64,000 nucleotides of DNA. It comes from a virus. Taxonomy: Duplodnaviria; Heunggongvirae; Uroviricota; Caudoviricetes. The notes beneath the pieces are model-generated. The model was given only the letters and a program-made list of their open reading frames with translations, was not told where the DNA came from and ran no database searches. The DNA lies in the IMG/VR virus record IMGVR_UViG_3300008255_000107; one strand, 5' to 3'. Position 1 is the first letter of the stretch; every line of letters starts with the position of its first letter. Positions 1,501 through 62,949 of the stretch are shown piece after piece. A program made the position numbers and the translations under genes.

Positions 1501-3709
1501 GCTTGGTACGGAACGAGTCCGTCCCCCGTACAGGTACTTTGTGGGCGGCAGCTTTTCTGGCGATGTCTTCCCCGCTTATGAAAAGATCCCTGGACAGATC
1601 CCTGGACAGATCCGTCAGGGCTTCCATTAACGCAGGGTCCTTGAATAGCTCAAAAACTTCTTTTAGGGCTACTGATGCTGCCCTCTCGAGTAATTTCCTA
1701 TCCGTGGACGTTTCTAAGATGTACTCATCGCACTCCGTGTCTTTGGCACCTGCAGAAGCATAGGGGATGTTAACGTCGTAGGGAGGTTTTCTAAAGTGTA
1801 GTAGTGCCCTGCGTACAGGGCCGTAAACCTTTTTCTCCAGACGCGGCCGGAAACCTTCGACTCTAACCATACGTACAAGGTCCCTACCCAATTCCGCCAA
1901 ATCACGGGCATGACCGGTGCATGCTGTTGGACCCTGCAACACGTAGTTGGCTGCATAACCAGCCAGGGATATTAACAGGTGGGACCACATGTTTTCGAAA
2001 TTGTTTAGGTACTCCTCCTCGGCTATCGTCTGGGCACCATCTTCATCGACGAAACAACACACTGGGGCTTTCCCTGTGCAGACCCACACGGCCAAGGCGT
2101 GTCCAATCTCATGAACAGACTTCATGTATGTCTCGGATTCGCTGCCCAAGATCACATCAGCCACACGATCCCTGTCACCTAACATAGGGTAGTACCCATT
2201 CAATTCCGTGTCGCAATTGATAACGAGGGCTTTGTGAAATCTGCTGTATGACACCGTGACGGGCGACTGGGGGTTTTGCTGGTAAAGTGTGGTAAGTATG
2301 AAGGTGCATGTGTCTTGAATGGAGGAGAACACCGGCCGCACACCCTGAACGGGGTATACACCGTTTCTGTACACGTAGTCGTAGACGGATGAGTCAATGT
2401 GTTTGATCTCGAACTCACCCTGAACAGTTCCCAGCACCTGTTCGTCTAGGTTCCGTTTGATCAATTCGCGGAAGTGGGCCTCACCAAGGGTGGGGTACAC
2501 AATATGAATGTTGCCCAGTCTAGCAACTTGTTCTGGAAAAAACAGTTTGGACAGCTCTTTTTTTACGTCGAAGATCGTTATGCGACGGCACCAATCTCGG
2601 TATATGTCTGCTGGAATGAACGGAGAAGTGCTGGGCAAGTTTTCCTCATACACACCATCTAGGTTACCCAGGACAAAAATAAGGTTTTTCCTGAAATCAT
2701 TTTCATAACTGATACGATTGGAAGGGGAGCTGTTGATAACTTTCTCCACGGCCTCCATCAGGCCCTCTACGGTACCATCGTGTGGGTACCCTTTATTGGT
2801 GATGAACTTTGATATTTTTCTAAAGTTTGCACCCAAATCCATTATGTTCTCAGTGCCCCTTCTAGAGTACTCACACATGTAGTACACATTCTCAGGATCA
2901 CGGTATTTCAGATTTTCTAGGAGGTACTCTCTAAGCCAAGGTTCCATGCTAAGCTTGGCTTGGATTAGAGATACTTTTTCCTCTTCCTTGCTAGACTCCT
3001 GGATGCTATCGTAGAACTTATCGGCAGCCTCATCGGTGAGATGCATACCACCGTCCATAACGGATTCCACAAAGGCAGGACTTTCCTTCGCTACCACGGG
3101 ATCTGGGGGTTCCCCCGCTAGATCCTCCAGCATCCTCTCCAAAGCGCTTTCGGCTCTTTTGGAGAACCTAGACACCTGAAAACCGTGAAAGGGGACATAA
3201 CCGAAGTCCCTGCAAGCAGAGTACAGATCGCCCTTGTCCATAGTCTGGACAATGACCCCATCTGACAATATCTGCCAAACGTCTTTGTAACCCAAACCGC
3301 GACGGGACGTACCGTCATTCTCTTTGGTCTTGTATCGTTGGAACTCGTCCAGGACCATGATGCCTGGTAACCCTAGTGATAGATCCATGCAATCCTCATG
3401 CACGGAGTCCAGCAGGGAGTGCTCACCCTCGTGGTCTGAGAATATTTGTTCCAGGAACCTATCTTCCATACCAAGAAACATTTTGAGGTCTCGGACCAGG
3501 TCAGTCTTACCCACACCCGTTGGACCCCACAGATTGATTATGAGGGGGCGGTGCACTCTTTCTGGGGTGACGTACCAGAAGGATATACGGTCGACGATTG
3601 AATCGATCTGATCATCGATACCTATGAACTTATTCTTAAGTTCACTACGTGCGACTTTTAAACGATCCCTGCGCTCAGAGGCCGTTTTAGGGTAGGGGTA
3701 TTGACTCAA
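1490..3709 (-). CDS. AAA+ ATPase fused to an HEXXH zinc metalloprotease (FtsH/M41-like, no TM segment)
   Basis: Walker [14 protein letters not shown] near residue 60 and Walker B-like [16 protein letters not shown] (the FtsH-type HExGH) near residue 540. The 12-nt tandem duplication ccctggacagat x2 at about 1585..1610 encodes LSRDLSRDL. Confidence 0.55.
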
Positions 3710-3927
3710 TTTTTGTACCTGAATGTGATACGACCACGAGAGAGGTCGTAGGGGCTTAACTCAATGACCACACGGTCATCAGGAAGAATGCGAATGAAAT
3801 GCTTACGGATCTTTCCGGAGATGTGCGCCAGCACTTCTGACCCATTGTCCAGCTTTGCTTTGAACCGGTCGCCGCCCAAGGCCTCTGTCACAACCGCTTC
3901 TACTTGGATGCCTTCTTCTTTAGCCAT
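3706..3927 (-). CDS. infA: translation initiation factor IF-1
   Basis: [73 protein letters not shown] aligns residue-for-residue with bacterial IF-1 (AHISGKMRKNYIRIL..GD.V.VELTPYDL..GRI.FR). 73 aa. Confidence 0.9.
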
Positions 3928-7085: not shown

Positions 7086-8495
7086 TTATTGGAAGTTTCT
7101 ACGGTAATCAACCAACCAACTGGTACCGTCGTCGTAGGTTACACCTTCTACGCGGTCTACTTCGTTGGGGCCCTGTGAAGGACTGTAACCGGTGCTGCCG
7201 GGGAACTTCCACTCTGCGGGGTTTGCCCATGACCATCCACCAGACCCATCCTGAGACACTCTCATATCAAAAGTATTAACCACACCTGGAGTCACGCCTG
7301 TGATACCGATGGAGGTAACATTTTCAGTAAGGACAATGTCGAAGTAAGAGTCTTGGTACAAGTCCAAAATAAGTTCACCAGACGAGCTTGCAGGTGTGCC
7401 CATGGTCATAACAGGGTACGACCCCGTGACACCTTGAGCACCAGTATCGCCCTGAACACCTGTTTCTCCCATGGGCCCAACAGGTCCTGTGGACCCATCT
7501 ATACCAGTTTCACCCTGTGATCCAGTATCACCTTGTATACCAGTTTCTCCTTGAGATCCGGTTTCACCTTGGGTACCAGTATCACCTTGTGATCCCGTCT
7601 CACCTTGGGGGGCACCTGACGGTCCTGTGGCTCCAGGAGCACCAGTTTCACCTTGTGACCCTGTCTCTCCTTGAGGAGCTCCTGCAGGGCCAGTAGCCCC
7701 TGCTAGGCCTGTATCACCCTGTGGGCCTGTTTCGCCCACACCAGTTTCACCTTGAGAACCCATGGCACCAGTTTCACCAAGAGCTCCGGTAAGACCGCGA
7801 GCCCCTGTGTCACCTTTAAAACCTGTGGCACCCTTAGCACCAGTGGGTCCTGGGAAACCTAGAGGTCCCTGGATACCTTGTACACCTTGGATACCCTGAG
7901 TACCGGTTTCACCTTTGGAACCATCAGTACCCGCGGCACCGGTTTCACCTGGGGCCCCCGTCTCTCCCTGAGATCCGGTTTCACCTTGTGACCCTGTTTC
8001 ACCTTGGGGTCCAGGCCACCCTTGGTATCCTGGGATACCTTGGACACCCGTTTCTCCCTGAGATCCCGTTTCACCTTGAGATCCAGTTTCACCTTTGGGT
8101 CCTACGGGTCCTCCGCTGGGGCCAGTAGCACCAGCTAAACCCGTGTCACCTTGGGATCCTGTTTCACCTTGAGAACCAGTTTCACCCTGAGGGCCAGTTG
8201 CTCCAGCTAAACCAGTTTCACCCTGAGATCCAGTTTCACCCTGGGACCCAGTTTCCCCTTGCGATCCAGTAGCGCCTTGGGGTCCAGTGGACCCTTCAAT
8301 GCCTGTCTCGCCTAGAGGGCCTGTAGCTCCAGGACCCGTATGGCCTTGAGGACCGGTAGCACCAGGTTCACCAGTAGAGCCGGCTTCACCCGTAGCACCC
8401 CATCCTGTTTCTCCTCGCACACCATCAGGTCCGGTGGACCCTACACCGGTCTCTCCTTTCGAATTGGAGATCCATTCTGGTTTAATCTTAGCCAT
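7086..8495 (-). CDS. collagen-like triple-helix repeat protein: about 330 aa of G-X-Y (GETGSQ/GATGPQ) repeats followed by a roughly 110-aa C-terminal globular domain
   Basis: Uninterrupted Gly-X-Y repeats in the translation. N-terminus [16 protein letters not shown] upstream of 8495. Confidence 0.85.
7430..8460. repeat. tandem degenerate 18-nt (6-codon) repeats encoding the collagen-like G-X-Y array
   Basis: Repeated ccagtttcaccttgagatcc, ccagtttcaccctgggaccc and related units visible in the sequence. Confidence 0.8.
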
Positions 8496-8738
8496 ACTAG
8501 CACAGGTCCTTGTTAATTACGTACGATGGGTTGTCTGCTGATAGCGATGGGGTTATGTATGTGGGAGTTGTTCGCAGCACCCGCACGGGATACCTTAAAC
8601 TCTTCCACAGCTTCCGTGGGAGAAACCCCGGCGCGATTACCAGAAGTGGCCTGGGGTACAGGAGACCCCAGTCCTTTCAAAGCACGTGTAGTTCCATTGG
8701 CGATTCCGCCTGGTCTTGAACGGGACATAGAAAACTCC

Positions 8739-9047
8739 TTAAGCCCCGCCTTCCACAAGTCCATCTTCCGTGGCACCTGCTGGAGGTGGGGGTGTGGTAG
8801 GTGGCGCTTCCTGGATGGTAGCAGAGGTTTGTTGGGCAGGTTTTTGAATCCTGATAGGGTTGACGGTAGCAAGAAGCTTCTCAACACGTTCCACCACATG
8901 AGTGTGCACTATGGGCAAACTGTTCTGGAGGTCTTCCAGGATGGCCAGAACCACAAAACCCTTGATGGCGTAATCGCCACTGGGGTGGATTTCTTTGGCG
9001 CCAGGTGGCACTTCTAAAGGCTGTTTTTCTTTTTGTTCTTCGGACAC
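8739..9047 (-). CDS. hypothetical protein (102 aa), Pro/Thr-rich C-terminus
   Basis: SD AAGAGG 8 nt upstream of the ATG at 9047. Preferred over the overlapping ORF 8513..8899. Confidence 0.45.
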   Translation of the reverse strand: MSEEQKEKQPLEVPPGAKEIHPSGDYAIKGFVVLAILEDLQNSLPIVHTHVVERVEKLLATVNPIRIQKPAQQTSATIQEAPPTTPPPPAGATEDGLVEGGA

Positions 9048-9080
9048 GTGTTACCTCTTGTATTTGGATTTGTGATAAAC

Positions 9081-9115
9081 AGAGGGACATAGCCCTCTTC
9101 AGACTATGTCCCTCT
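9081..9115. terminator. hairpin terminator (agagggacatag ... ctatgtccctct) downstream of the 9139..11118 gene
   Basis: 12-bp perfect stem. On the minus strand it is followed by a T-rich stretch. Confidence 0.55.
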
Positions 9116-9138
9116 CGATTAGAAGATTATCCCAAAAA

Positions 9139-11118
9139 TCAGGTCACAACGGCTTCCAAGGTGAAGCTGCTGGAGTAGGTTGCGTTAGCCAACCACAGGT
9201 AATGGTAACCCGTAGATCTTGCTAGGAAAGGTCCTACTTCAGGGTTGTCTGTGATGGCTTGGGCATGGTACCCCTTTGAGTACTTATACCTGGCATCAGA
9301 GCTACTGGAAGAGAAACCAGTTCGGACGTTCTCGGTAGCCTGCCGGGGGCTCATAAGGAACAGCTGTTGCTGGGTCCCCCCTCCAGAGGTTATTTGGAGG
9401 GTGTACCTAGAACCAGCGGTCAGAAGCATGGCATATACTTTATAGCTGTTTGAAGCTACTGTGTCCACCAGTGGTGAAAGGTTCCATAGGGTGGCGCCCG
9501 CGCTGATGGCGGTGGTAGTAACCTGGAAGCTACCTGAAAGGTTCAAATTAGTACAACCGGAGAATGTGGCGTTATACACATTACAACCTCTAAAGGTGGA
9601 CCCCACTAAGTCTAGGCCGTCAAAGTTGGCGTGGCTCAAGTCACACCCTATAAAGTCACAGAAGGCAAATCTGGTTAGGGCGGAGAAGTCCACACCCTTC
9701 ATGTCTACACCCATAAATTTGGTATAAGGTAGAGTGTCCCCAGCCCCGGTTATAGCCGTGGCATTTTGGATACTCCCACCACTGTGGGTACCGCCACCAC
9801 CACCTATGGTGAGCTGGGAGTTACCGTAGTCTTCTCCGTTAGAACGGGAGGTGTTTACGTCATGGCACCAGTTCACCCAACATGCAGATGCAGTTACAGC
9901 CTCATTATAGCCATAACCGTTCCAGGAGCTATTAGCGGGTGAGAAAGCACCCCGAGCCTGCGTACCAGGTTCTACGGCTACTCGGGTCATGGAGCTAGTC
10001 CCTGCGGAAGTGACCATACTAGCCGGTAGCACACTGTCGCACAGGGTGGAAGGGTAAGCACTCACATTGTTGTGAGTGAATGTTATGTTACCTACGATGG
10101 TACTTTCCTCGGCAATAAACTGGGATACTCTGCAATCCACGAAGTAAAGGCTACCCAGAAAACCTATGAGGGAAACATCAAGAGCATCTATAGTGCATTT
10201 AGTGAAGGTAAGACTTCCTAAGTAAGACCCAATCATGGTCATGGTGCTGGGACCGTATAAGGAGCATTTTGTAAAAGAGGTACTACTCAAAGTGGTGCCT
10301 GAGCCGAACACCTGAGCGGATATGTGGGAATCGTAAAAGTTTGAGGAGGAGAGGTCACAGTTAAGGGCGCTGTTGGCGTTAAAGTCGCATCGGTAGAAAT
10401 TACAGCTTGTCAAGTTTCTGCTGGTCATACTTGTTAGGAAGGTACAACCAGTAAAGGTAGCTGAAGCAAAAACAGCATCGTTACCCACAAAATAGGGGTC
10501 CAGGAATGTAGTCCCCTCAAAACTAACCTGATAGTATACACCACTAGTAGCCTTCAGGGTTCCACCGTAAAAATATTGACCGGGAGCTATAGTCATGTCA
10601 ACAGCGTGAACATTCGAACCGTTCCAGGTACCGGACCAAGTACCCGTACCTGTCATGGTAGCACTCCACATACCAGCATCGCTCATGTCAAACGATACAG
10701 CCGTGAAGTTCCCAAAAGCGTTACTACCAAAAGTGGTGGCTACGCAGGACCAACCGGTAACTGTTGTCGGAGAGGAGAATGTGAAGGTCGAACCATTCAT
10801 GACGGCCTGGTCGAGGACTATGTTGTCGTACCCCGTTAAGTCGGCCCAGGTGCACCCTGTCACCGTAGCACCCGTGAAGTCGGCGCCCGTTAGGTTAGCA
10901 CCCGTGAAGTCGACCCCACTAAGATAGGCGAAAGAGAAAATAGCCCCACTCAGGTTGGTACCCACAAAGCTAGCACCACTGAGGTTAGACTCGGAACTAG
11001 GGGCACCCGTAGTCATCATGCCCATAAACACGCCGTTGGATAGATCCAGACCGGCCATGCCCGAGGCGGCACCACTGTAAATGATGCTGCCATCGTTCTT
11101 ATTTTTAACGACTGCCAT
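9139..11118 (-). CDS. beta-helix / pentapeptide-like repeat fibre protein (659 aa)
   Basis: Multiple A(N/D)(L/F)xx-type repeats (ANLTGADFTGATVTGC, SGASFVGTNLSGAIFSFAYLSGVDFTGANL) typical of right-handed beta-helix or pentapeptide repeats. Gly/Ser/Thr-rich. Confidence 0.6.
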   Translation of the reverse strand: MAVVKNKNDGSIIYSGAASGMAGLDLSNGVFMGMMTTGAPSSESNLSGASFVGTNLSGAIFSFAYLSGVDFTGANLTGADFTGATVTGCTWADLTGYDNIVLDQAVMNGSTFTFSSPTTVTGWSCVATTFGSNAFGNFTAVSFDMSDAGMWSATMTGTGTWSGTWNGSNVHAVDMTIAPGQYFYGGTLKATSGVYYQVSFEGTTFLDPYFVGNDAVFASATFTGCTFLTSMTSRNLTSCNFYRCDFNANSALNCDLSSSNFYDSHISAQVFGSGTTLSSTSFTKCSLYGPSTMTMIGSYLGSLTFTKCTIDALDVSLIGFLGSLYFVDCRVSQFIAEESTIVGNITFTHNNVSAYPSTLCDSVLPASMVTSAGTSSMTRVAVEPGTQARGAFSPANSSWNGYGYNEAVTASACWVNWCHDVNTSRSNGEDYGNSQLTIGGGGGTHSGGSIQNATAITGAGDTLPYTKFMGVDMKGVDFSALTRFAFCDFIGCDLSHANFDGLDLVGSTFRGCNVYNATFSGCTNLNLSGSFQVTTTAISAGATLWNLSPLVDTVASNSYKVYAMLLTAGSRYTLQITSGGGTQQQLFLMSPRQATENVRTGFSSSSSDARYKYSKGYHAQAITDNPEVGPFLARSTGYHYLWLANATYSSSFTLEAVVT

Positions 11119-11136
11119 AAACCTAATCTCCTATGA

Positions 11137-14100
11137 TCAGAATGAAACCTTGGATACGGTCACGTGTGCCATCCATCTGGTATCCACCCCTGCTGTACTT
11201 GGTACTGAAATGTCAAACAAAAGCCCAGTAGCACCGATACCCACGTCGACTCCCTGCAACAAGTTATCGTTTGAGCAACCCGTGTAGGAAGCCAGCACAC
11301 TGCTGGTATCAATGTAACTTTCATCCGTGGTCAGGATGCCTTCAAAATGCTGCACAGCACCAATAGCACCCGTGTAACCCTTGGCCACCACTTGGGCTCT
11401 TACCGAGTAAGAGGTATTTGGGAGCAGGTTGTACTGGGCATCAGCGTGGATACCTGTGGTACCCTCAAGCAGCAACGACTGCCCGGTGATACCGGTGTCG
11501 TCTGTGAAACCACGAAGGATGAAGTCTGAGGTTTGGGCATCACCACGGTTCTCGAACTTTCCGTTAGCGTGGGCTATTTCGGAAATGTGGGTGGCCTTGG
11601 CACCCCTACTACCCAGAACTGTGGCGTAGTCAGCCCCTAAGGTATCCGAGTCGTTGGAGTTATAGATACCCTGATGTGTACCCGTGCCACCTACGTCACA
11701 ATCACTAACATTGTGCAAGGATAGATTGGTACCAGACCCCATGGTAGACCTGTTGAAGGCCGTCATGGCTGACGTGATGGTACCACCTGAGACGTAACCG
11801 GACATACCCGCTTCCACTACGGAGTTGGTGACATTCCTTACGTTCGAATAGGACACTGCTCGGATTGCAGCCATGTTGCCCGTGAAAAGGGTAGTGTGCT
11901 CGGAGGATGCCACCGAGGATTTCTCTGACCCACCAGCTCCGGTTATACCGCGAGAAGAATCAATACTAACTGAGTTGGGTCCTTCCAGAAGGTTACAATC
12001 CCGAGAACTACTTATCCTACTGTACTCTCCACTGTGTATTCTGCTGTTCCCAAAGGAAGCCATAGAACTGAAGTTAGAGGATTCCATCGCACCCGAGTAA
12101 CCCGCTTCCATGGAAGCGAATGACGTACTGACCATAAGACCGTTCTTAACAGAACGTAATGAGTCCATGTTAGTACTCTTGGCCGTTATATCCTGGGACG
12201 CGGATATGCTGGTATTGTGGGCGCCCCACATACCGGTGATACCTTGAGAGGAGTCCACGTGCATGTAAGAGTTGGAGTCAGAAAAGTTAACGATCTGCGA
12301 GGACGATACATCGATATGGTTAGAACTGCTAGTTACTCGTACATCCCTGGAACTACCCACCTCAACATAGGCAGCACCACTGCTTAGCTGTACCTGGTGA
12401 GCTGACCTGACTGACGAGTATTGTACTGAGGATATGATGCTGGATTCTAGGACTCCGGACAGAGTGCTGCTGGTAGACCCTGAAATGGCGCCTGAGTAAC
12501 CGGCTTCAATCATGCATTGCTCAGATCCAGTGATATAGGACTGCCTGGAACTAAGCACTGTGCTGTTATGGGAATCAATGTTTTGGCAATCTTCGGAAGA
12601 TGCTAGGAAAAGCATTTCAGATCCATTGGCCACATTCCTGCGCCCGCCAACCATACCGCTGGCACGAACGGCATTAGTCATGCTGTTCTGCTCACCACCT
12701 ATGATAACGGACTCTTCACAGAAGTAAGCCATAAGGTGTTCACGGCCTCCTGCTATGAGGGAGTTGTGGGAGTACCCTGTAATAACACCGCGGTCTACTG
12801 CAAGTATGGAGGAACCCTCGGTGTTACCAGAAACGATAGAGTTCATAGACGATTTTATGGAGCTCCGGGAGCTCATTTCGGATATGGAACTCTCACTGCT
12901 GTTGTGGATGGAGGCATGGTAGGACCCCCCAGAAATGGACACAGAGTAACTGTTGAAGATGCCACTGTAGTCGGTAGCAGGACGAATGAAAGATCCAGCG
13001 GAACCCATAATTACGGCGCTGTTAGATGATTGGACCGTAGAGGCGAAGCAGGCAGCCAGGACAGACTTAGTGGAGTTATCCAGTGTGCTGCTTTCGCTGG
13101 CGGCTATCAAGGAGTCCTTAGCGGAATCCATATTATTGTCTGTGGACAGGGCCAACGCCACGGAGCGATAACTACCCATTACCCGTAAGCCGCTGTCCGA
13201 GCTACTCTGGGTGCAAGCTAGTACAGCGATATCGGTGCTCTTGTCCAGAGTAACGTACGAAGAGGCTGCGGTAAGGATACGGTGGGATGCCGTCAATTTA
13301 ACTTCTGAGCTAGCCGCAATCGAAGCAAAACTTGAAGAAGCCATGTACGTTGATGCCGAAGCACCTATGGTGGCGGTCGCACTATAATACACTTTATTAC
13401 CGGAGGAGGAGCCCGCCACAGATACAGAGGTGCTGTCTATGATGCTGGCCCCGGCTGATCCCGCAATATGGGCGAGACTAGCTGCGGTGATATTCGAATC
13501 ACGGGTACCGTCCATGGACGACACAGCCGCAGACTTTATATAACCACCTGAGGAGGCTTTAATGGAGGTTAGGTTAATGACGTTAGCATAGGTGTTGTAA
13601 ACAGCGGATACGTCGGACCATACTGCATCGTTTACGTAACCAGACACACCTGACCGCACTCCTGAGAATCGGCTATTACGGATGTGACCCCCATCTGAGT
13701 TTCTGAAATCCGCAAAGGTGTTCGCCACCATGGCGCTTCCTACTCTGGAAGTAGCTGCACGGAAAAAGGCGTTAGCCTGTAGGGTAGCACCGTCAGAACT
13801 GTCCACGCCCGAGTAGGTGTTGGACGATTGCATCTGTACATTTCGACTCTGGCCGGCATGGCTATAGGAACTGTTGTAGAAGTATGTATTTTCTGTACCC
13901 TGAGCACTGGAGTGGTGAGAGTACTCCCTAAGGTAAGTGCTTTGTACACCCTGAAGGGTAGAGTAGTTGGTGTTGTACACCTGCCCATTGTAGGAGGCTT
14001 GCACCACGGACTGATGGCTGTAGTCCGTAATCACACAGTCATGGGAAGCTGCCATAAAGGCTTCGTTGGAATCCTGAATGGACGAGTCAGCGGTAGCCAC

Positions 14101-16527
14101 AACCGCTGATCTATCTGACCCCGAAACTTGGGCATTGGATGTACCCAAAAGGGCAGACGTGTTGCTGTGGTCCACATTTCCTTGGTAGGAAGCTAGTATG
14201 GCCACGGCGTTGGTGCTGGAGGTGTTTGAGTCTATGCTGGACTGCATAGAAGAGTTAGTGTCGTCGGTACTGTTGGCATTTGAGGAAGCCTGAATGTAGC
14301 TACGTATACCGTTTACGATCGATGCGTACCTAGACCCACCAATAAAGGATTCTGTGGAATCTTCCATGTGGGTTTCTGAAGAAGCCACCATACCACCGCG
14401 TACAGTTCGCAAGGACGAAGAAGCCAAGTTCCCTAGCAACACACCGCCAAGTCCCATACGGAAGTCACTATCGTGGTTGGCGAAACCAGCACTTAACATC
14501 ATTTCTTTGTAGTTAGTGCTTTGGCCTCCCCCAAAAGAGGATTGGTGGGAGTAGGGTCCCACTCTTAGGCTCCTACCACCAGTAACTGTGGTGGAATCGC
14601 AGTACATAGCAATAAGGTCATTACCGGCAATAGCACCAAATTCGTGGTTAGCCGGTCCTATTATGGACCGGGTCTGGGCCATAACCACTGAGGCAGCGTT
14701 ACCTACCACACTAGTGGACTCTCTAACCCCTGCTATCATGGTTTCAGTGTTACCCGCCATGGAGGTGCCTAGGTAGTTAGCTATGCTTTCATTGGGGAGA
14801 CTCGAAGAACCCTGGAAGAAGTCAGAGTAAGCCCCTGTAAATCCGTCTGGGATTACACCCGATGAAGAGTTCCCTGACGAACGCATCTCTGTCCTTGCCC
14901 CGTATCTTAAATCAGCTACGCTGGAGCTTGCTATCTGAGAAGTACTGGCCAGAGATATGCGAGCACTCTCTGAGGTTCCTATCATGGCCACAGAGCTACC
15001 AGTAATACCTAAATCTCCGGTTCCTACACTTGAACGGGATGAAATAATAGTGCTGAGTTCCGATAATCCTATGTAGGTGCTACTATTGGCTGAGCTGTAA
15101 GAGGATAGGATGGCGGATTCCCTGGATAGGATAATCTGTACCTTGGCGTACCTAGGAGTCCAAGGAGCCTGGGGTATGCCACTATTCATAACGGAGTCAT
15201 AACCCTTGGAAGCGGCGATCAGAGAAGACGTGGTCCCCTCGAGACCGGCGGCAGAGGAACTTGCCAAAATGGAGGAGTACTTTGTGTTTTGGGTTCCGGT
15301 ACCGTTGGACACAGCACATCCCTGCGCGGCGCCTATGAGTACACCATTAGCATTATGGACGTCCACTGCTGATGATCCTAGTACAGCTATCCGCTCAGGG
15401 TAACCTATACCGTAATTGGAGTAACCCTTAGATGCCAAGTCACCTACATTGACACCTATTGAACCCATAATGGCTATGGACTTACCTGCATTAATAAGGG
15501 AGGAAAGAGACGAATGTATGCTGGCGTAGGAAGGGGTCCCCTCATTTACGGCTATGATACGAGATTCGGACGAAGATCCTATATGGGAGGCCGAGGCGTT
15601 CTCTAACCAGGAGTTTTCGGAGGAATCTATGGAAGACACACGGGAACCAGGTACCAAACCTGGAGCAGCTGGTATGGTACCATGAGTGATAGCTGAACCT
15701 GCCGATGCAGTAATGGCTACACTCTGTACGGCTCCCTTTACGTGGGAGTCCGTAGTGGCGGAGATAGCCACGTTTCTAGCGGGACGGCTTGTGGTGATGC
15801 TGGAGGTATCTTCCCCCTCTACGAGGGTATATGTAGAGGCCAATATGGAGGTTTCATCCGTGTAATGGGCCAACACATGTTGGGAGGCCTGTAGAGCGGT
15901 ATTGTACGAGTAAATGGGGTAACTGTACTCTGTAGCTCCACGGATTTCAGCGAGCCCACTGTACCCCGGCATTTGGTTTGAATAGCCTGGTTGTATGGAC
16001 GGAGTGCTTGGTACCCCATTATTGTTCCAAGTAACTGGATCGGATTTGTCAGATTGAGTGATGTCTATGAAATACCGGTTGTCACCCACGGCCCCAGTGT
16101 AACCTGTGGTGGCTTGGATGATGCCACGATTAGCCAGAGAAATGCGAGCGTTACTGGAACTGTAGATACCGCTTGCTATGGCTAATTCTTCGGCCAGGTT
16201 GTCATTTCCACCGATGATAACGGTGTCGTTTGACTCCCCACGGATGATACCCCGTACACCTGCCATAACTGATGAATGTATGGCGTGCTCCACAGTACTG
16301 TCCTGAGTGGATATTTTGGAGCTGTACGCAGTTATAACGGTGGAAGGTTCCACGCCCGTGTAACCGGCGGTTAGAATGGGAGCGTCCCAGGTGCCCGTGG
16401 CACCCCGGAGATCTAAAGATCCTCGCGCTTGGTCTAGGAGGATGGACCCATCGGAGGAAAGGTCGTACGCCAGCTGGAGATCTCCACCGAGTTCTCCGTC
16501 AATCCATTCAGGTTTTACTTTTGCCAT
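11137..16527 (-). CDS. giant (1796 aa) Ser/Thr/Gly-rich repetitive structural (fibre or surface) protein
   Basis: Single uninterrupted ORF of low-complexity S/T/G/A/N-rich degenerate repeats. N-terminus MAKVKPEWI, shared with the collagen-like protein. Confidence 0.7.
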   Translation of the reverse strand: MAKVKPEWIDGELGGDLQLAYDLSSDGSILLDQARGSLDLRGATGTWDAPILTAGYTGVEPSTVITAYSSKISTQDSTVEHAIHSSVMAGVRGIIRGESNDTVIIGGNDNLAEELAIASGIYSSSNARISLANRGIIQATTGYTGAVGDNRYFIDITQSDKSDPVTWNNNGVPSTPSIQPGYSNQMPGYSGLAEIRGATEYSYPIYSYNTALQASQHVLAHYTDETSILASTYTLVEGEDTSSITTSRPARNVAISATTDSHVKGAVQSVAITASAGSAITHGTIPAAPGLVPGSRVSSIDSSENSWLENASASHIGSSSESRIIAVNEGTPSYASIHSSLSSLINAGKSIAIMGSIGVNVGDLASKGYSNYGIGYPERIAVLGSSAVDVHNANGVLIGAAQGCAVSNGTGTQNTKYSSILASSSAAGLEGTTSSLIAASKGYDSVMNSGIPQAPWTPRYAKVQIILSRESAILSSYSSANSSTYIGLSELSTIISSRSSVGTGDLGITGSSVAMIGTSESARISLASTSQIASSSVADLRYGARTEMRSSGNSSSGVIPDGFTGAYSDFFQGSSSLPNESIANYLGTSMAGNTETMIAGVRESTSVVGNAASVVMAQTRSIIGPANHEFGAIAGNDLIAMYCDSTTVTGGRSLRVGPYSHQSSFGGGQSTNYKEMMLSAGFANHDSDFRMGLGGVLLGNLASSSLRTVRGGMVASSETHMEDSTESFIGGSRYASIVNGIRSYIQASSNANSTDDTNSSMQSSIDSNTSSTNAVAILASYQGNVDHSNTSALLGTSNAQVSGSDRSAVVATADSSIQDSNEAFMAASHDCVITDYSHQSVVQASYNGQVYNTNYSTLQGVQSTYLREYSHHSSAQGTENTYFYNSSYSHAGQSRNVQMQSSNTYSGVDSSDGATLQANAFFRAATSRVGSAMVANTFADFRNSDGGHIRNSRFSGVRSGVSGYVNDAVWSDVSAVYNTYANVINLTSIKASSGGYIKSAAVSSMDGTRDSNITAASLAHIAGSAGASIIDSTSVSVAGSSSGNKVYYSATATIGASASTYMASSSFASIAASSEVKLTASHRILTAASSYVTLDKSTDIAVLACTQSSSDSGLRVMGSYRSVALALSTDNNMDSAKDSLIAASESSTLDNSTKSVLAACFASTVQSSNSAVIMGSAGSFIRPATDYSGIFNSYSVSISGGSYHASIHNSSESSISEMSSRSSIKSSMNSIVSGNTEGSSILAVDRGVITGYSHNSLIAGGREHLMAYFCEESVIIGGEQNSMTNAVRASGMVGGRRNVANGSEMLFLASSEDCQNIDSHNSTVLSSRQSYITGSEQCMIEAGYSGAISGSTSSTLSGVLESSIISSVQYSSVRSAHQVQLSSGAAYVEVGSSRDVRVTSSSNHIDVSSSQIVNFSDSNSYMHVDSSQGITGMWGAHNTSISASQDITAKSTNMDSLRSVKNGLMVSTSFASMEAGYSGAMESSNFSSMASFGNSRIHSGEYSRISSSRDCNLLEGPNSVSIDSSRGITGAGGSEKSSVASSEHTTLFTGNMAAIRAVSYSNVRNVTNSVVEAGMSGYVSGGTITSAMTAFNRSTMGSGTNLSLHNVSDCDVGGTGTHQGIYNSNDSDTLGADYATVLGSRGAKATHISEIAHANGKFENRGDAQTSDFILRGFTDDTGITGQSLLLEGTTGIHADAQYNLLPNTSYSVRAQVVAKGYTGAIGAVQHFEGILTTDESYIDTSSVLASYTGCSNDNLLQGVDVGIGATGLLFDISVPSTAGVDTRWMAHVTVSKVSF

Positions 16528-16749: not shown

Positions 16750-18399
16750 ATGGCCACCGGAGTAACTTACCAAGACCTTGACGTGCTTACCCTTAATAGC
16801 AGTGAGAGTTATGTAAACTGTGTTTTCCTTCGAATTAAGAAGATCCAGGTAGCTTCCGCGGGCTCCAATGCCATGGTCACCTGTACATTTACAGACTGCC
16901 CTGACGTACTTTGCGATTTTAGTCTGATGCAAACTTGCGTGGTTACACGCTGTACCTTCACAGTCAACCAAAGCGGCTCTACATTGTACTGGTACTCCAC
17001 GACCGCCACGGATTCTTATTTCTACAAGACTTCGTCCAGGACCGTGTCACTAAGCGCAGGGACTTACACTGGGGGCGTCATAGCGGGAAGGTTCAATGTA
17101 GAGTACAATGGTTCCCCTGTGGTCCTTACGGGTGTTACTGTTAAAGGGTCCCCTGCTTACGACGGGGTACTTTTGGGTAACAACTTGAATATGACGGACT
17201 GTGTTTTCGAAAACATCGTTACTGTGTCCGTAAGTAACCTGAGCCTTGCAAACTGCTCTGGTCCAAAGCCGTCCAAGGTGACTTTGCAGAATTGCTCAGG
17301 AGGAGGTGTCTCCGGGGGTACGTACGACATCCTGATCATGGACGGTGCTAACTCATCTTTTTCTTTCCAGCCCTCTAAAGTTTCGGTGGTAAACTACCCT
17401 AGTTATGGCACATGGAGCTCTGTCCCTCTTACCACCGCCGTGGATACTATACAATACCCCGTACCAATGAACATGACAAGCTGCTCTGTTTATGGTGCTA
17501 AGGGGATAGATGTGCGTAAGCACAGCGTAGCGTGGACTGACGTAACATGGCAGGCTCCCGCCCACAACTTGAAGTTGCCCAGGTTGTCCCGTATCATTCT
17601 AGGCCATCACGCATCCCCCACTACTAACCCTTTTCGAAACTGTGACCTGACGGACTCTCCTCGATTAGAATTCACAGCGGGTGGGTTCTACGTAAGAGAT
17701 TTTGACATGTCCGGCTCCAACCTCTACAACACTCCCTCTGGGGCCATGTTTATGGGGAACAATGTTAAGGGCAGGGGGTGCAACATGAGCAACCTTTTCC
17801 GAGCGGATATCTCCAAGGGTACCACCATTAGGGGTTGGGATTTCCGGGATGCTGTATGGAACGACGCTTATCTAAACGGCCTTAAATTTGTGGATTGCGA
17901 CTTCCGCGGAACAGTGTTTAACGGCGGATACATGCAAAACTGCTCTTTTGCTAATACCTCTTTCAAAGGGGCCAATTTCAATTTTATAGACACCACAGGT
18001 ACGGATTTCTCCGGCGCCGACATGACTTCTGGTTATACCAGGTTCGATGACCAACTATCGGGATGGTCCCCATGGCCATACCAGACCAGCTCCAATGCCT
18101 TTAGCGTTGGATCGGGGCAATCCGCTGCGTTCAGCGTAATTGTTAATTACATAGGACGTAGCATATCCACAGGTCTACTTTCTGGTATCGTCTGGGTCCT
18201 TTCCGAAAAAACGGCAGACAGCCACTATATACAGAGTCTGGTGTCCGTGAATGAGGATTATCTGGATGCGAATGCCATTCAGAAAATCACTGTAAGTGCG
18301 GGTGCATCCATAACTTTCGCTGCGACCCCGGTTGCGGGAAGATATTACCTGGTGGTCAAAAACACAGGAAGCACTACCAGGACTGTGCAGATGCAGTAG
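16750..18399 (+). CDS. pentapeptide-repeat-containing fibre-like protein (549 aa)
   Basis: C-terminal half contains consecutive pentapeptide repeats (FRGTVFNGGYMQNCSFANTSFKGANFNFIDTTGTDFSGADMT). Followed by a terminator. Confidence 0.6.
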   Translation: MATGVTYQDLDVLTLNSSESYVNCVFLRIKKIQVASAGSNAMVTCTFTDCPDVLCDFSLMQTCVVTRCTFTVNQSGSTLYWYSTTATDSYFYKTSSRTVSLSAGTYTGGVIAGRFNVEYNGSPVVLTGVTVKGSPAYDGVLLGNNLNMTDCVFENIVTVSVSNLSLANCSGPKPSKVTLQNCSGGGVSGGTYDILIMDGANSSFSFQPSKVSVVNYPSYGTWSSVPLTTAVDTIQYPVPMNMTSCSVYGAKGIDVRKHSVAWTDVTWQAPAHNLKLPRLSRIILGHHASPTTNPFRNCDLTDSPRLEFTAGGFYVRDFDMSGSNLYNTPSGAMFMGNNVKGRGCNMSNLFRADISKGTTIRGWDFRDAVWNDAYLNGLKFVDCDFRGTVFNGGYMQNCSFANTSFKGANFNFIDTTGTDFSGADMTSGYTRFDDQLSGWSPWPYQTSSNAFSVGSGQSAAFSVIVNYIGRSISTGLLSGIVWVLSEKTADSHYIQSLVSVNEDYLDANAIQKITVSAGASITFAATPVAGRYYLVVKNTGSTTRTVQMQ

Positions 18400-33085: not shown

Positions 33086-33901
33086 TTACTTGAACATACC
33101 ACTGCGGAATATGTGACTCTTAGGAAGTGAATCGGTATCGTAGTGTGATGTGCCGCTAACCGCCTGGTCTGAGGTAACACCCACATGCCTATCAAGCGCG
33201 TGGTGAGGCCCAGTTACACCATGGTGGTACAACGCAGGCCCAGTTACACCCCGATCCGACAGGCCTTCTTCCGATGGGTCGTTGTATCCTTGTATTCCCA
33301 AGGTGGCTATTTTCCCATCTTTGGCGATAGCAGCAGTCTCGTGTTGCATCACGTGGTAGTACAGGTCCCTGGTCCACTTGGCATCCACAAGGGCATTGTG
33401 AGCCCCTACGGGGTCAGGTAGCGAACTAGCACCACTGGCGTCCATGATCTGTTTAACGTCCCTGCAGTACATGGGGAATCCCTTAGGTAGATCCACCATC
33501 TTACCAAAAAGCCAGCAAAACACGACCCAGTCATATGCCGCATAATAGCCCCAGAACTCTGGATTGGTGGTTTCCGCATGGACGAATTCAATGATCTCCT
33601 GAGCGATAACCCTCTTAGGCTTACGCAGCCTTCGGACGGGAAGATCTTTCAGAACATTAGCCTTTACCCAGGAGTCTGCTTTGGATGAGTCAAATTCCTG
33701 GGATACAGCATAATACTCCCTGCCTGAATCGCTCACTATCCCTATGGATACCAAATCGATGCTGCAGGGGTATTCTATGAATTCAGTGTCCAGGAAAAAC
33801 TTCACATTCCCACGTCCACCCATGTGGACCCGGGAAGCCCTGGGGGCAGAAGTTTCTTCCTGGTATAACCATTCTTCTTTGATCTTAGCCATCTTCTTCA
33901 A
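33086..33901 (-). CDS. DEDDh-family 3'-5' exonuclease
   Basis: Exo I FLDTEFIEY, Exo II AYDWVVF and Exo III HNALVDAKW motifs. N-terminus MAKIKEEWL. Confidence 0.6.
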   Translation of the reverse strand: MKKMAKIKEEWLYQEETSAPRASRVHMGGRGNVKFFLDTEFIEYPCSIDLVSIGIVSDSGREYYAVSQEFDSSKADSWVKANVLKDLPVRRLRKPKRVIAQEIIEFVHAETTNPEFWGYYAAYDWVVFCWLFGKMVDLPKGFPMYCRDVKQIMDASGASSLPDPVGAHNALVDAKWTRDLYYHVMQHETAAIAKDGKIATLGIQGYNDPSEEGLSDRGVTGPALYHHGVTGPHHALDRHVGVTSDQAVSGTSHYDTDSLPKSHIFRSGMFK

Positions 33902-34148
33902 CAGCCAGGATGTCGGTACGTTCCAGCACGGCTACAGTTTCACCACCATGGGTGATTTCCATAGCCTTATCCACCGCGTAGAAAACGGTTTTACCTACCA
34001 GTGGGTCTTCTTCGTTGGAAAACATGACCACACCCTTACGGACACGGCTATCGTCCCTTGGGTTGGTGATGGTGAGACCGGATGCGGTTACAGTTTCTTT
34101 TTCGTCGTCCACAGTTACTAGGACGCGACCGTTCATGGGCTTGAGCAT
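33885..34148 (-). CDS. groES: co-chaperonin GroES
   Basis: 87 aa. Pattern RVLV..DE.ET.T.SGL.I ... DILAV matches GroES. Immediately upstream of groEL. Confidence 0.8.
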   Translation of the reverse strand: MLKPMNGRVLVTVDDEKETVTASGLTITNPRDDSRVRKGVVMFSNEEDPLVGKTVFYAVDKAMEITHGGETVAVLERTDILAVEEDG

Positions 34149-34202
34149 GATACTCTCCTCGTGTAAAATGAAAAGGGGCCTGGATCGACCCCTTTATGGT
34201 TT

Positions 34203-35828
34203 TCAGTAATGGTTGAGATCGGTTGCCTGAGTAGAAGCACGATCGTAGGTGATGGCGCAACTGGCTGTAAGCAACATACCTGCGATGGATACCGCGTTAC
34301 GGAGAGCCGTTACAGTTACCTTCACGGGGTCAATGACACCAGTCTCCAAAAGATCCTCGTACTTACCAGTATGGGCATTAAAACCCTTCTCGATACCTTC
34401 GTTGATCTTTTCGATGATGATGTCAGGGCTTTGGCCGGCATTCAGAAGAATGTTACGGATAGGTGCTTCGATGGCCTTTAACACGATATTATAGCCACGA
34501 ACCTGTTCAGGGCTCATGTCCACAGGAGCCTGGAGATTTTTACGGGCCAATATCAAAGCTGTTCCGCCACCGGGCACGATGCCTTCTTCCACGGCGGCGC
34601 GAGTGGCATGCATGGCATCTTCCACACGGTCGCGAAGTTCCTTGGCTTCCACTTCCGATCTACCACCAACATAAACCACGGCCATGGCTCCGGAAAGCTT
34701 TGCCACACGGTTCAAGATCTTTTCGCGATCATACTCGGACTCAGTGCTCTTTGCTGAAGCCTGCAGGGCTTCCACACGTGCATGCACTTGTTCGGGGTCA
34801 CCCATGGGTTCGAAGATGGTTGTGGTCTTGCTGGAGATGCGTACGCGGCCAGCTTGGCCCATCTTTTCTACACTGGCTTCGGATAGGGGTAAACCACCTG
34901 AGGAGGCGTCACCAAACACTTCACCACCCAATGCAGTGGCCATGTCATACATGTTGTCATTTTTCTGATCACCGAAACCGGGGATACGAATGACAGTCAT
35001 GTTCACAGCACCCTTAAGCACGTTGGCCAGAATCTGATCCAAAGCGGGCTTGCTGATATTGTGGCAGACTAACACGATTGGAGGACGTTCCTTCACCTTG
35101 AGAACTGATTCGATGCCCGGCAAAATTTCCTGGATGGTGGCCACGTTCTTGTTCACCAAGAAAAACACAGCATCGCTGATGTTGATTTCCGAGGAGTTTT
35201 CTGCAGTGATGAAATGAGGAGAAACCATACCCTCAGGAAGTTCCATACCTTCAATGAATTCCAAGCGGATACCCGGTTCACTACCTTCTTCGATAGTCAC
35301 CACGCCCGCTTGACCCACCTTATCAATGGCTTCAGCCAGTACCGCCCCAATCTTGGGTTCGTTGTTGGCGGAGATGGTTCCCACACGAGCCACAGTTTCC
35401 AGATCGTCGGCAGGTTTTGCCATATGGCGAAGTACCACTTCCAGGTCGTCGACGGCACGGTCCATACCGCGCTTGAGTTCCACAGGAGAACCACCATTCA
35501 GAATGACTCGAACGCCTTCGTCCGTGACAGCTTGTGCCAGCACCGTAGCGGTAGTCGTACCGTCACCGGCTTCGTCACAAGTCTTGGCGGCTACATCCTT
35601 GGCCATTTGGGCACCAAGGTTTTCAAAGGGGTCTGCGAGATCGATCTCTTTGGCTACAGAAACACCGTCTTTCGTTACAGATGGTGATCCGTACCCACGT
35701 TCGATGATTACGTTTCTGCCACGGGGTCCCAAGGTTTCCTTAACGGCATCAGCCAATTGGTCCAGGCCGGACTTCAGGGCTTTGATGGCTTGGTCTCGGA
35801 AAATGAGATTCTTGGGTCTATCTTGCAT
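34203..35828 (-). CDS. groEL: chaperonin GroEL (Hsp60)
   Basis: LGPRGRNVIIERGYGSPSVTKDGVSVAKEI ... AGDGTTTATVLAQA. Full 541-aa GroEL without the GGM tail. Confidence 0.9.
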   Translation of the reverse strand: MQDRPKNLIFRDQAIKALKSGLDQLADAVKETLGPRGRNVIIERGYGSPSVTKDGVSVAKEIDLADPFENLGAQMAKDVAAKTCDEAGDGTTTATVLAQAVTDEGVRVILNGGSPVELKRGMDRAVDDLEVVLRHMAKPADDLETVARVGTISANNEPKIGAVLAEAIDKVGQAGVVTIEEGSEPGIRLEFIEGMELPEGMVSPHFITAENSSEINISDAVFFLVNKNVATIQEILPGIESVLKVKERPPIVLVCHNISKPALDQILANVLKGAVNMTVIRIPGFGDQKNDNMYDMATALGGEVFGDASSGGLPLSEASVEKMGQAGRVRISSKTTTIFEPMGDPEQVHARVEALQASAKSTESEYDREKILNRVAKLSGAMAVVYVGGRSEVEAKELRDRVEDAMHATRAAVEEGIVPGGGTALILARKNLQAPVDMSPEQVRGYNIVLKAIEAPIRNILLNAGQSPDIIIEKINEGIEKGFNAHTGKYEDLLETGVIDPVKVTVTALRNAVSIAGMLLTASCAITYDRASTQATDLNHY

Positions 35829-43753: not shown

Positions 43754-43827
43754 TGATCGCAACTGGATTCGAACCAGTGGCCTGCTCCTTAGGAGGGAGC
43801 CGCTCTATCCAACTGAGCTATGCGACC
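43754..43827 (-). tRNA. tRNA-Arg (anticodon CCT)
   Basis: Reverse complement GGTCGCA TA GCTCAGTTGGATAGAGC G GCTCC CTCCTAA GGAGC AGGCC ACTGG TTCGAAT CCAGT TGCGATC A. Canonical cloverleaf, 74 nt. Confidence 0.85.
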
Positions 43828-44258: not shown

Positions 44259-45113
44259 TTATGAGATGGGGCCCAATCGTGATACGGAGTTAACCCCATC
44301 CACGTAACGACCACTAAAGGTAGCACCGCGGGGTAAGAAACCTTTGAACCCATCGGCGATTGCCTTAGCATTCCATTCCTCGAAATTAGACCACACGTTA
44401 TCCTGGCAGTGGTATAGCCACATCTTGGCTTTAACCTCAGCGGGGAAAGTACGAAGATCGTCGTAGTGGGCGTGGACACCCGAACGGAATCCAGTTTCAC
44501 AATCATGGAAGATCACATCCGACTCCCCATAATAGGCCCTCATGGTGGTCTCAGGGCTAAACTGGGTGTCGGTGGTCAGAAAATATCGTATACCCACGTC
44601 GGGGTCATTCCACATCAGTCCGTACGAGCTGCAGGTCATGTACTTGGCTGTCACATGGGTAGTCTGGACGATGTCAAACGTAATGTCCTTCCAGGTGAAA
44701 CTTTCATTTCTGTTCACAGGTCGAAGGTCAAAATAGGTGGACAGGGATACGATACGCTCACCTTCCAAGTAGCTGGTACCTTCTAAACCTTCTAGGCCAC
44801 CACGTAATGACTTCTCCCAGGCCTCATTCATTAAGCCACCTTCCATGTAAAGGGTAGGCTTTTCTCGTCCCGGTATAAATTTAGTGACCTGCCCCAAATT
44901 CTCCACCCCACCAATGTGGTCGTTGTGAAGATGGGACACGAAGAAAGCGTTGATGTCGTTGATAGTCTTACCCTGCTGCCTAAGGGCATGCCTGGCGTCC
45001 CCACCACAATCCACTAGGAAATTCTCATTATCCCTAGTGATCAATAAGTTGGAATGCCAATTGTACTCGTAGCTGCAATTGGCGGAACCTGTTCCAATGA
45101 AGTTTAAAATCAT
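44259..45113 (-). CDS. metallo-beta-lactamase-fold hydrolase
   Basis: HLHNDHIGG (the HxHxDH motif) and downstream His/Asp ligands. Confidence 0.6.
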   Translation of the reverse strand: MILNFIGTGSANCSYEYNWHSNLLITRDNENFLVDCGGDARHALRQQGKTINDINAFFVSHLHNDHIGGVENLGQVTKFIPGREKPTLYMEGGLMNEAWEKSLRGGLEGLEGTSYLEGERIVSLSTYFDLRPVNRNESFTWKDITFDIVQTTHVTAKYMTCSSYGLMWNDPDVGIRYFLTTDTQFSPETTMRAYYGESDVIFHDCETGFRSGVHAHYDDLRTFPAEVKAKMWLYHCQDNVWSNFEEWNAKAIADGFKGFLPRGATFSGRYVDGVNSVSRLGPIS

Positions 45114-45208: not shown

Positions 45209-46105
45209 TTATATTCTTCTTCGGAACTTGTCCCAGAACCAATCTTTCTGCCAACCCCTTCCGTCATGTGGACTCACGGGGTCCACGGGGTCCACGGGGT
45301 CTGGATCGGGAGGAACCACCGGATCTACGGGATCTGGGTCTGGGGGTACCACGGGATCTGGTTCAGGAGGGATTACAGGATCAGGCTCCGGCGGCACCAC
45401 AGGGAGAGAACCTGAGTCTGCATCGATGGTAGTCCACACTTCCCAATGATCACCCCAATCCGAGTAGGGGAACAACGTGAGTCCTTCTACGCCCCAATAG
45501 TTACCCCAGCTGTTCCGGATTATGAATCCAAAGGGGTTGTACCCCACTACCGCCATAGCATGCCCGCCTATGTAGGTATCCCCTTCAAAGGCATGCCATA
45601 ACCTTGTAGTGGTATTGAGCACGGGTACAGCCATGACACAAGGTCCATTCGCATACAAAGCGTTTTTCAGCCCTTCAATAGTTAGGACCTGGGCATAGGC
45701 GCTGATCTTATACTGGGCAGCTTTGCCTAGCACAGTAGCATTGGGCTCAGACAGATTCCAGTAAACAAAGTCCTCTTCGAAGCAATCCCCGTAATTCCTT
45801 AGGATGTTCATGAGATCCCTCATGTACATTCCCTCGGCTGGGGCGTTACTTCTCAAGTTGTAAATGAACTGAGGGGACATGTAACCACCGTAGGCCACAT
45901 CCTGTTTCTCTTGCCATTCCTTCATGGCGGCGCCGGCCATCGCCGCACAAGTTCCCTGTGAACCTTGGTCCCTAATCGGATTCATCTCTGAAGCGTAGGA
46001 CAGGTACATAGGGAGTTGTGTGCTATAGGGTACGAGGTTTTCCGAGATATAATCTCGTCTGTCCACCGGACTCTTGATTACGTTAAGATGAAATTGCATT
46101 ACCAC
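45209..46105 (-). CDS. papain-like (C1 family) cysteine peptidase with a C-terminal Pro-rich PEPDPV repeat tail
   Basis: QGSQGTCAAMAGA (catalytic Cys in QGxCGSC-like context), a downstream His in GGHAMAVVGYN, and NSWG. C-terminal (PPEPDPV)n. Confidence 0.65.
   Translation of the reverse strand: MVMQFHLNVIKSPVDRRDYISENLVPYSTQLPMYLSYASEMNPIRDQGSQGTCAAMAGAAMKEWQEKQDVAYGGYMSPQFIYNLRSNAPAEGMYMRDLMNILRNYGDCFEEDFVYWNLSEPNATVLGKAAQYKISAYAQVLTIEGLKNALYANGPCVMAVPVLNTTTRLWHAFEGDTYIGGHAMAVVGYNPFGFIIRNSWGNYWGVEGLTLFPYSDWGDHWEVWTTIDADSGSLPVVPPEPDPVIPPEPDPVVPPDPDPVDPVVPPDPDPVDPVDPVSPHDGRGWQKDWFWDKFRRRI
45270..45400. repeat. tandem degenerate repeats (ggatctgg/ggtccacgggg units) encoding the PEPDPV proline-rich tail
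   Basis: Visible direct repeats in the sequence. Confidence 0.6.
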
Positions 46106-62839: not shown

Positions 62840-62910
62840 TGAACCTACAGGGGCTCGAACCCCGACTTAGAGAATCAGAATCTCTTGTGCTACCATTACA
62901 CCATAAGTCC
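62840..62910 (-). tRNA. tRNA-Gln-like (anticodon CTG) with an aberrant acceptor. The 5' strand GGACTTA does not pair with the 3' end GTAGGTT but with TAAGTC in the variable region. Possible pseudo-tRNA or rearranged tRNA.
   Basis: D-arm GTG-TAATGGTAG-CAC, anticodon arm AGAGA-TTCTGAT-TCTCT and T-arm CGGGG-TTCGAGC-CCCCT are good. The acceptor is mismatched. The 3' end abuts the HNH gene ATG. Confidence 0.4.
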
Positions 62911-62949
62911 TAAGATAAGAAATAAGGAAAGGAAGGGTACATTACATAA

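Follow-up and report, generated by a model that had tools for sequence, protein, structure and literature searches.

A nine-residue N-terminal peptide common to two presumed fibre proteins and an exonuclease of a metagenomic phage: a possible docking peptide

Introduction

Why would three proteins of a single phage, otherwise unrelated to one another, begin with the same short peptide? The question is raised by a 64,000-nucleotide stretch of DNA (the window) from IMG/VR virus record IMGVR_UViG_3300008255_000107, a member of the Caudoviricetes. The window makes up the opening ~64 kb of a 208,623-bp metagenome contig (ENA ERZ27293386 k141_252269), and our searches for structural genes and binding partners cover this part of the genome. 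Three minus-strand genes open with the motif: MAKIKPEWI forms codons 1 to 9 of a gene for a collagen-like protein (8469..8495), MAKVKPEWI those of a gene for a giant protein of 1796 amino acids (aa) (16501..16527), and MAKIKEEWL those of an exonuclease gene (33866..33892). With the tenth residue included, the giant protein starts MAKVKPEWID and the exonuclease MAKIKEEWLY. An original prediction had described this motif on the three proteins and had taken it for an N-terminal anchor on the two structural ones. All three N-termini are present as it described, and the interval it gave for the two fibre genes, 7086..16527, correctly covers both. We give an even chance to the reading that the peptide, M[AS]K[IV]xxEW[IL], is a docking hook onto an adaptor of the virion.

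The Shared N-terminus and Its Start Codons

A resemblance over nine residues could be an artefact, whether through chance similarity, wrongly placed starts or a nucleotide-level element such as a translation enhancer or promoter. MAK is a common N-terminus, and large metagenome scans pick up exact MAKVKPEWI on unrelated proteins about as often as estimated for chance. Within the window, however, chance is excluded by a six-frame scan and by a pairwise comparison of reading frames. When all six frames of the 64 kb are translated, the pattern K[IVL]K[PEDQA]EW[ILVM] has exactly three matches, each of them immediately after M-A at the start of an open reading frame (ORF). In the pairwise comparison, the nine residues after Met were compared for 263,558 pairs of ATG-started frames, each of at least 50 codons, and six pairs share at least six of the nine residues. 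Four of these involve internal Mets of two papain-like protease paralogues (45209..46881), and the other two are pairs of motif copies. The sharing of the motif within the window is therefore real, including the exonuclease copy, which the original prediction had thought might be a coincidence. Beyond the nine residues there is no significant similarity among the three proteins, so the carriers are indeed otherwise unrelated.

The start codons were examined too. An in-frame stop codon lies 4 to 11 codons upstream of the motif in each fibre gene and 16 codons upstream in the exonuclease gene, and these stops therefore leave no room for a start, or a longer ORF, beyond them. In the case of the exonuclease, the ORF had originally been drawn as 33086..33901, with a TTG start and the N-terminus MKKMAK…. 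The true start is probably ATG 33892 and not TTG 33901, because the stop codon that ends the Cpn10/GroES gene upstream shares nucleotides with this ATG (ATGGCTAA; context GATGGCTAAG) and because the public gene call P0001 starts here too, yielding a protein of 268 aa. With this start the motif stands at the exact N-terminus of all three proteins, and no alternative start codon takes it away, an outcome that the original prediction had named as one that would undo it. The motif-bearing genes have no upstream sequence in common. In related phages, described below, an AGGAG lies 8-12 nt upstream of the collagen-like genes.

Conservation in Related Phages

If the peptide has a function, it should be retained where the rest of the protein has been free to change. 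Orthologues of the giant protein were sought by an exhaustive HMMER search of a representative protein set, using residues 1-1200 as the query. Three remote orthologues were recovered (P0121, P0122 and P0123; 1258-1662 aa, 28-29% identity, E values of 2e-23 to 2e-17), and the best-matching stretch of the giant protein was residues 1-156. The orthologues are encoded on other metagenome contigs (ERZ27247350 k141_1544409, JGI 3300001533 MLSed_10004890 and JGI 3300045339 Ga0490012_000090) that are syntenic with the window. The common gene order runs SLT, Tmk, dUTPase, a divergent pentapeptide-repeat protein, the giant protein, a protein of ~88 aa and the collagen-like protein, followed by a cellulase, IF1 and a protein of ~722-739 aa.

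M[AS]K[IV]xxEWI opens both fibre proteins in all three relatives. The giant orthologues begin MAKVQPEWIDG, MSKVTAEWIDG and M-KVKPEWIDG, and the collagen-like orthologues MSKVKPEWI, MAKVKPEWI and MSKIKPEWI (longer reads MSKVKPEWIADSKG, MAKVKPEWIADSKG and MSKIKPEWIHNSKG). Loss of the motif from orthologues in related genomes had been put forward originally as a finding that would speak against the idea; the motif is present in both genes of three relatives. K3, [IV]4, E7, W8 and I9 are unchanged across the fibre copies, and third-codon positions vary freely among them (GCA/GCT/TCT, AAA/AAG, GTA/GTT/GTC/ATT/ATA/ATC, CCT/CCA/CCC/GCG, GAA/GAG, ATT/ATC/ATA). Selection must therefore act on the peptide and not on a nucleotide element, which is ruled out by this variation. 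The synonymous divergence also implies that the sharing of the motif between the two fibre genes is old and does not stem from a recent recombination between them. Taken with the window statistics, the upstream stops and the lack of a common upstream sequence, chance, wrong starts and a nucleotide element are effectively refuted, and we leave them next to no probability.

A peptide of this size is a poor query by itself. When the motif alone was used as a profile in a local test, true copies scored 17-24 bits, equivalent to E values of ~100-2000 at a database size of 5.8 billion proteins, where the E-value cap is 10. Degenerate-DNA scans for the motif in IMG/VR and GTDB genomes returned unrelated matches only, near the chance estimate from the information content of the pattern. 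The same was true of a scan of JGI metagenome contigs, which also failed to return the phage's own JGI contig and so does not exclude relatives there. In IMG/VR, no relatives were found via the collagen-like C-terminal domain, a neighbouring 659-aa pentapeptide-repeat protein, a profile of the N-terminal domain of the giant protein or a profile of the small protein of the cluster. Among GenBank phages there was no match for the giant protein at the protein level, nor for window bases 30000-40000 in a search for near-identical DNA. A word-indexed protein search with the full giant protein and with its N-domain profile returned no match, not even the query itself or its orthologues, probably because low-complexity words had saturated the candidate list.

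Two further cases of common N-termini were seen along the way. Unrelated metagenome proteins of ~150-190 aa (L014 1887..1912 and L015 459..484) also open with MAKVKPEWIE; their C-terminal part resembles the RpoA C-terminal domain. The scan that yielded them gave six matches, about the chance expectation, and their context is unrelated. Separately, one of the relative contigs (L017 2553..5712, minus strand) carries five tandem paralogues of ~115-216 aa that have an N-terminus in common within their own family. Three open with MNKQTFEIIDG and two have diverged (…FEIINGVY… and …FTIIDGMY…), after which Y-x-GPE-x-W follows.

The Two Presumed Fibre Proteins

The collagen-like protein (7086..8495, minus strand; 469 aa) is identified by Pfam Collagen (PF01391) with an E value of 4.4e-47 and 158.1 bits against a cut-off of 27.2, and its orthologues are also positive. 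It consists of a 13-aa N-terminus (the motif plus SNSK), ~111 G-x-y triplets (aa 19-360) and a non-collagen C-terminal domain of ~109 aa. The motif and four further residues are thus the whole non-collagen N-terminus. Of the first 17 residues of the protein, 12 are the same in all four phages (M1, K3, K5, P6, E7, W8, I9, S12, K13, G14, T16 and G17). The C-terminal domains, by contrast with this conserved start, differ in length, are not alignable between phages and, judged by their sequences, are non-homologous. Matches of the collagen-like protein to PHROG tail-fibre families stem from the collagen repeats only.

The giant protein (11137..16527, minus strand) is an orphan rich in Ser (19% Ser, 27% Ser+Thr) and is presumed to be a fibre or adhesin. 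The motif opens a conserved N-terminal domain of approximately aa 1-200 (15928..16527). In the alignment with the orthologues (A4), M1, K3, V4, E7, W8, I9, D10, G11, G14, G15, L17, Q18, A20 and Y21 are among the invariant residues. Identity to the orthologues is 34-37% over the N-terminal ~200 aa, 22-26% in the centre and 25-28% over the C-terminal ~165 aa. In both proteins the N-terminus is therefore the most conserved part, as an anchor on structural proteins, the role originally predicted, would have it.

A Docking Peptide and Its Precedents

A conserved N-terminus followed by a variable distal end is the usual layout of phage receptor-binding fibres, in which the N-terminus is the virion-proximal attachment end. 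It is because the two proteins match this pattern that we favour a docking peptide. Their architecture suggests that both are virion fibres, and the peptide is proposed to bind a partner common to the two. Each fibre would plug its N-terminal peptide into a site of one and the same type, located on an adaptor of the virion or on a baseplate, neck or capsid protein. The collagen-like protein, taken on this account to form a trimer, would present three copies of the peptide. One particle could thus carry two different fibres, each with its own variable distal end, on a common mounting point. The exonuclease copy would either recruit the enzyme to the same partner or be a functionless footprint of gene conversion.

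Docking by very short peptides is an established principle. In the tailspikes of phages K1E, K1-5 and SP6, conserved N-terminal hepta- and undecapeptides (7-11 residues) dock onto an adaptor, and in Klebsiella phages conserved peptides, sometimes of only 7 residues, attach a second receptor-binding protein (RBP) to the T4gp10-like branching domain of the first (PMC6872550). Experimental validation is reported in a further paper (PMC13352976). The present motif resembles these RBP docking peptides in two respects: a short conserved peptide stands at the extreme N-terminus, starting with Met1 in both fibre genes, and it is conserved while the distal part diverges. The partner and the location on the virion are putative. 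As in K1E, K1-5 and SP6, and in the Klebsiella KP32, KP34, Menlow and PhiK64-1 groups, a very short N-terminal peptide is common to different fibres or spikes whose distal parts vary. However, there is no sequence resemblance (KP34-type MALxxLV versus M[AS]K[IV]xxEWI). Moreover, those RBPs are beta-helical depolymerases, whereas the carriers here are a collagen-like protein and an orphan Ser-rich 1796-aa protein, together with an exonuclease.

A second parallel comes from bacterial spores. According to one study, BclA, the collagen-like filament of the Bacillus exosporium, is attached to its base, BxpB, by a short N-terminal domain and by neither its collagen region nor its C-terminal globular domain (PMC10470788). 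Attachment of the phage protein would likewise be via the N-terminus. Unlike the phage protein, BclA is a bacterial spore protein with an N-terminal domain of 38 residues; the likeness is one of layout and no homology is claimed.

Several observations weigh against a docking peptide. The giant protein has no match in Pfam, PHROGs, PDB sequences or GenBank phages, and thus no detectable homology to a known fibre; a PDB sequence search with its N-domain profile also gave nothing significant. The AlphaFold2 (AF2) model of this domain, built from a 4-sequence alignment, was unusable (mean predicted local distance difference test, pLDDT, of 37). The scan of the window proteins revealed no virion structural gene and no T4gp10-like branching domain, adaptor or other partner. 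The fibre cluster sits amid genes for nucleotide metabolism and glycosyltransferases and not in a recognisable tail module. Finally, an exonuclease has no obvious reason to dock beside fibres.

The Tagged Exonuclease

The exonuclease (33086..33892, minus strand; 268 aa) is an Rv2179c-like/RNase T-like DEDDh enzyme, recognised by PF16473 (E 9.3e-11; 42.2 bits against a cut-off of 27) and phrog_2259 (E 3.7e-52). Residues D35, E37, D121, H165 and D170 are invariant in an alignment of 50 sequences. Its homologues (n=3925) are typically 152-175 aa long, and the additional length of the present protein lies at both ends. At the N-terminus, aa 1-30 (33803..33892) form an extension made of the tag and a linker, which is predicted to be disordered; the Pfam domain starts at residue 31. 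The AF2 model has a core of aa 31-192 with pLDDT >90, and aa 1-30 and 193-268 are coil with pLDDT of ~50. A disordered extension outside the fold is as expected for a portable linear motif, as far as the model goes.

The tag is a lineage-specific addition on a flexible linker. The motif occurs in 0 of the 119 best homologues, most of which begin ~5 residues before the catalytic D-x-E (MKYFLDTEF…), and the 29-aa extension that bears it is missing from all 119, including the syntenic orthologue. The latter, P0002, is the closest homologue (64% identity, 169 aa); it starts MYMPDTSKPVKFFLDTEF, without the tag and without the C-terminal tail. It is regarded as the syntenic orthologue in a related phage because its gene directly follows a Cpn10 gene and has thymidylate synthase a few kb downstream. 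The tail of the present enzyme, approximately aa 186-268 (33086..33340; disordered from ~193), is an orphan segment of ~80 aa that is missing in the 152-175-aa homologues. It contains GIQG and two GVTGP units and is marginally collagen-like, with 18 of 1000 shuffles reaching the score observed against the collagen-like protein.

How did the enzyme acquire the peptide? Over 24 nt, the start of its gene agrees with that of the collagen-like gene in the same genome at 21 positions, synonymous codon choices (GCT, AAG, AAA and GAA) included, and beyond codon 8 there is no DNA similarity between the extension and the fibre genes. Such a match could have arisen by copying of the collagen-like start or because the same peptide was selected for. 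The copy may be a short footprint of gene conversion, with the collagen-like gene as donor, and the exonuclease core might even lie between remnants of a collagen-like paralogue. These features are what would be expected if the motif were a relic of common descent with no common partner, in which one ancestral fibre-gene start was kept for local reasons such as folding or trimer registration and the exonuclease copy is the trace of a gene conversion. Both the near-identical start and the weakly collagen-like tail fit such a history. However, although synonymous sites have reached saturation between the two fibre genes, all four phages preserve the residues in each gene, which points to the same constraint on both. 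Furthermore, the residues that the exonuclease retains, K, [IV], E, W and [IL], are those at which the eight fibre copies do not vary (or, in the case of I9, a conservative replacement), and this is unexpected of a neutral footprint. We consider a relic unlikely.

The enzyme also brings to mind a general tag for incorporation into the virion or packaging, comparable to the capsid targeting sequence (CTS) of phage T4, with the exonuclease deliberately co-delivered. The T4 targeting peptide ends in [LI]-x-E, the cleavage motif of the prohead protease. Such a tag would account naturally for the exonuclease. In its favour, the same nine-residue N-terminal peptide is borne by three otherwise unrelated proteins, one of which is an enzyme with an added flexible extension. 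In T4, diverse internal proteins have only the conserved N-terminal CTS in common, and foreign proteins, a nuclease among them, can also be brought into the head by the CTS (PMC3012670). The likeness is therefore that a peptide of about ten residues is the sole feature common to unrelated proteins and can be transferred to enzymes. In T4, however, proteins with a CTS enter the head through the scaffolding core, and the prohead protease cuts the targeting peptide off.

The details do not favour the T4 arrangement; a packaging signal was one of the alternatives that the original prediction had allowed for. The conserved carriers are very long fibrous proteins (469 and 1796 aa) and not small internal ones. 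The eight fibre copies read [IV]-x-[PA]-E-W, which provides no [LI]-x-E site for cleavage behind the tag; I-K-E is confined to the exonuclease. The window has no recognisable head gene, prohead protease or scaffold. The one available syntenic orthologue of the exonuclease is untagged, so that conservation is limited to the fibre copies. A general incorporation or packaging tag is thus improbable, in our estimate. We attach a similarly low probability to the broader idea of a portable virion-addressing tag, by which any protein with M[AS]K[IV]xxEW[IL] on a flexible N-terminus would be placed on the particle or taken into it and the exonuclease, recently tagged, would travel with the virion. Secretion, also suggested originally, was ruled out as an alternative: none of the three proteins has a hydrophobic N-terminal stretch.

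Neighbouring Genes and an Assembly Factor

A docking peptide need not be the only kind of binding site at an N-terminus. The peptide may instead be a recognition tag for an assembly or modification factor that binds the nascent N-terminus, such as the small protein of the cluster, a neighbouring glycosyltransferase or the phage GroEL/GroES. The small protein (8739..9047, minus strand) has 102 aa in the window and 87-89 aa in the relatives. It was recognised by gene order and by an alignment (A6) with 16 invariant columns, and has a conserved core of ~60 aa and a Pro-rich tail, without a match to any family. It is present in the fibre cluster of all four phages. In the relatives its gene (L017 13023..13292; L019 8821..9090; L021 10311..10574) is the only one separating the giant gene from the collagen-like gene; in the window this interval also holds a gene for the 659-aa pentapeptide-repeat protein and a 71-aa ORF. 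The small protein is a candidate adaptor, partner or assembly factor.

Its presence in the cluster of all four phages speaks for an assembly factor, as do the several GT2 glycosyltransferases that flank the cluster and the overlap of the tagged exonuclease gene with the GroES stop codon. However, nothing ties the small protein, the glycosyltransferases or GroEL/GroES to the peptide, and the adjacency to GroES is also found for the untagged exonuclease orthologue. In addition, fibre chaperones of other phages usually act on C-terminal domains. An assembly or modification factor is therefore a doubtful explanation, and a docking peptide remains our preferred one.

Two pentapeptide-repeat proteins of the neighbourhood do not carry the motif. 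The 659-aa protein (9139..11118, minus strand; Pfam Pentapeptide, E 2.8e-24) has the N-terminus MAVVKNKNDG. The other, of 549 aa (16750..18399, plus strand), is divergently transcribed and has syntenic orthologues of 826-1205 aa.

Genome Setting

The gene content of the contig fits an uncultivated huge phage of bacteria, and parts of the same genome are also found in a JGI assembly and a Logan assembly. The window encodes GroEL and GroES (33885..35828, minus strand), thymidylate synthase, an IF1/eIF-1A-like protein of 73 aa (3706..3927, minus strand), GT2 glycosyltransferases, a GH5 cellulase and an NAD-dependent ligase; dUTPase, thymidylate kinase and an SLT domain protein are also encoded in the genome. 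A sigma-70-like gene lies just beyond the left edge of the window (L007 12294..13076).

Other genes of the window are of interest in their own right. The large subunit of ribonucleotide reductase (54537..59147, minus strand) contains intein-type insertions of the LAGLIDADG/homing-endonuclease class and a C-terminal TSCPD domain. A Ro60/TROVE protein with a vWA domain (48942..50270, plus strand) is encoded on the strand opposite to most genes, and a scan with Rfam gathering cut-offs found no Y-RNA-like RNA near it. The papain-family (Peptidase_C1) paralogues mentioned above, unusual genes for a phage, are arranged in tandem and overlap (45209..46105 and 46099..46881, minus strand). A metallo-beta-lactamase-fold protein (44259..45113, minus strand) matches the anti-Pycsar Apyc1 family with an E value of 2.4e-24 and 86.6 bits (cut-off 50) and is a candidate anti-defence cyclic-nucleotide phosphodiesterase. 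Seven tRNAs are present, six of them in a cluster at 62840..63628 (minus strand; Gln-ctg, Gln-ttg, Met, Ile-tat and two Phe) and the seventh a tRNA-Arg(cct) at 43754..43827 (minus strand).

Significance

The shared peptide is conserved and probably has a function, and docking by short N-terminal peptides is already known as a principle. If it holds here, the range of this principle would grow beyond small coliphages and Klebsiella phages to include fibres of the collagen-like and giant kinds. The odd extra beside this familiar principle is the tagged exonuclease, which in that case would be a testable example of an enzyme recruited by the same address. If the peptide were instead a portable tag, it would be a natural counterpart of T4 CTS cargo loading, with an address common to external fibres. 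The practical consequence is modest: a motif to search with and a candidate module for engineering. Should the docking hook prove true, these nine residues would provide a means of identifying proteins attached to the virion in a lineage of huge phages without cultured members or recognisable fibre homologues.

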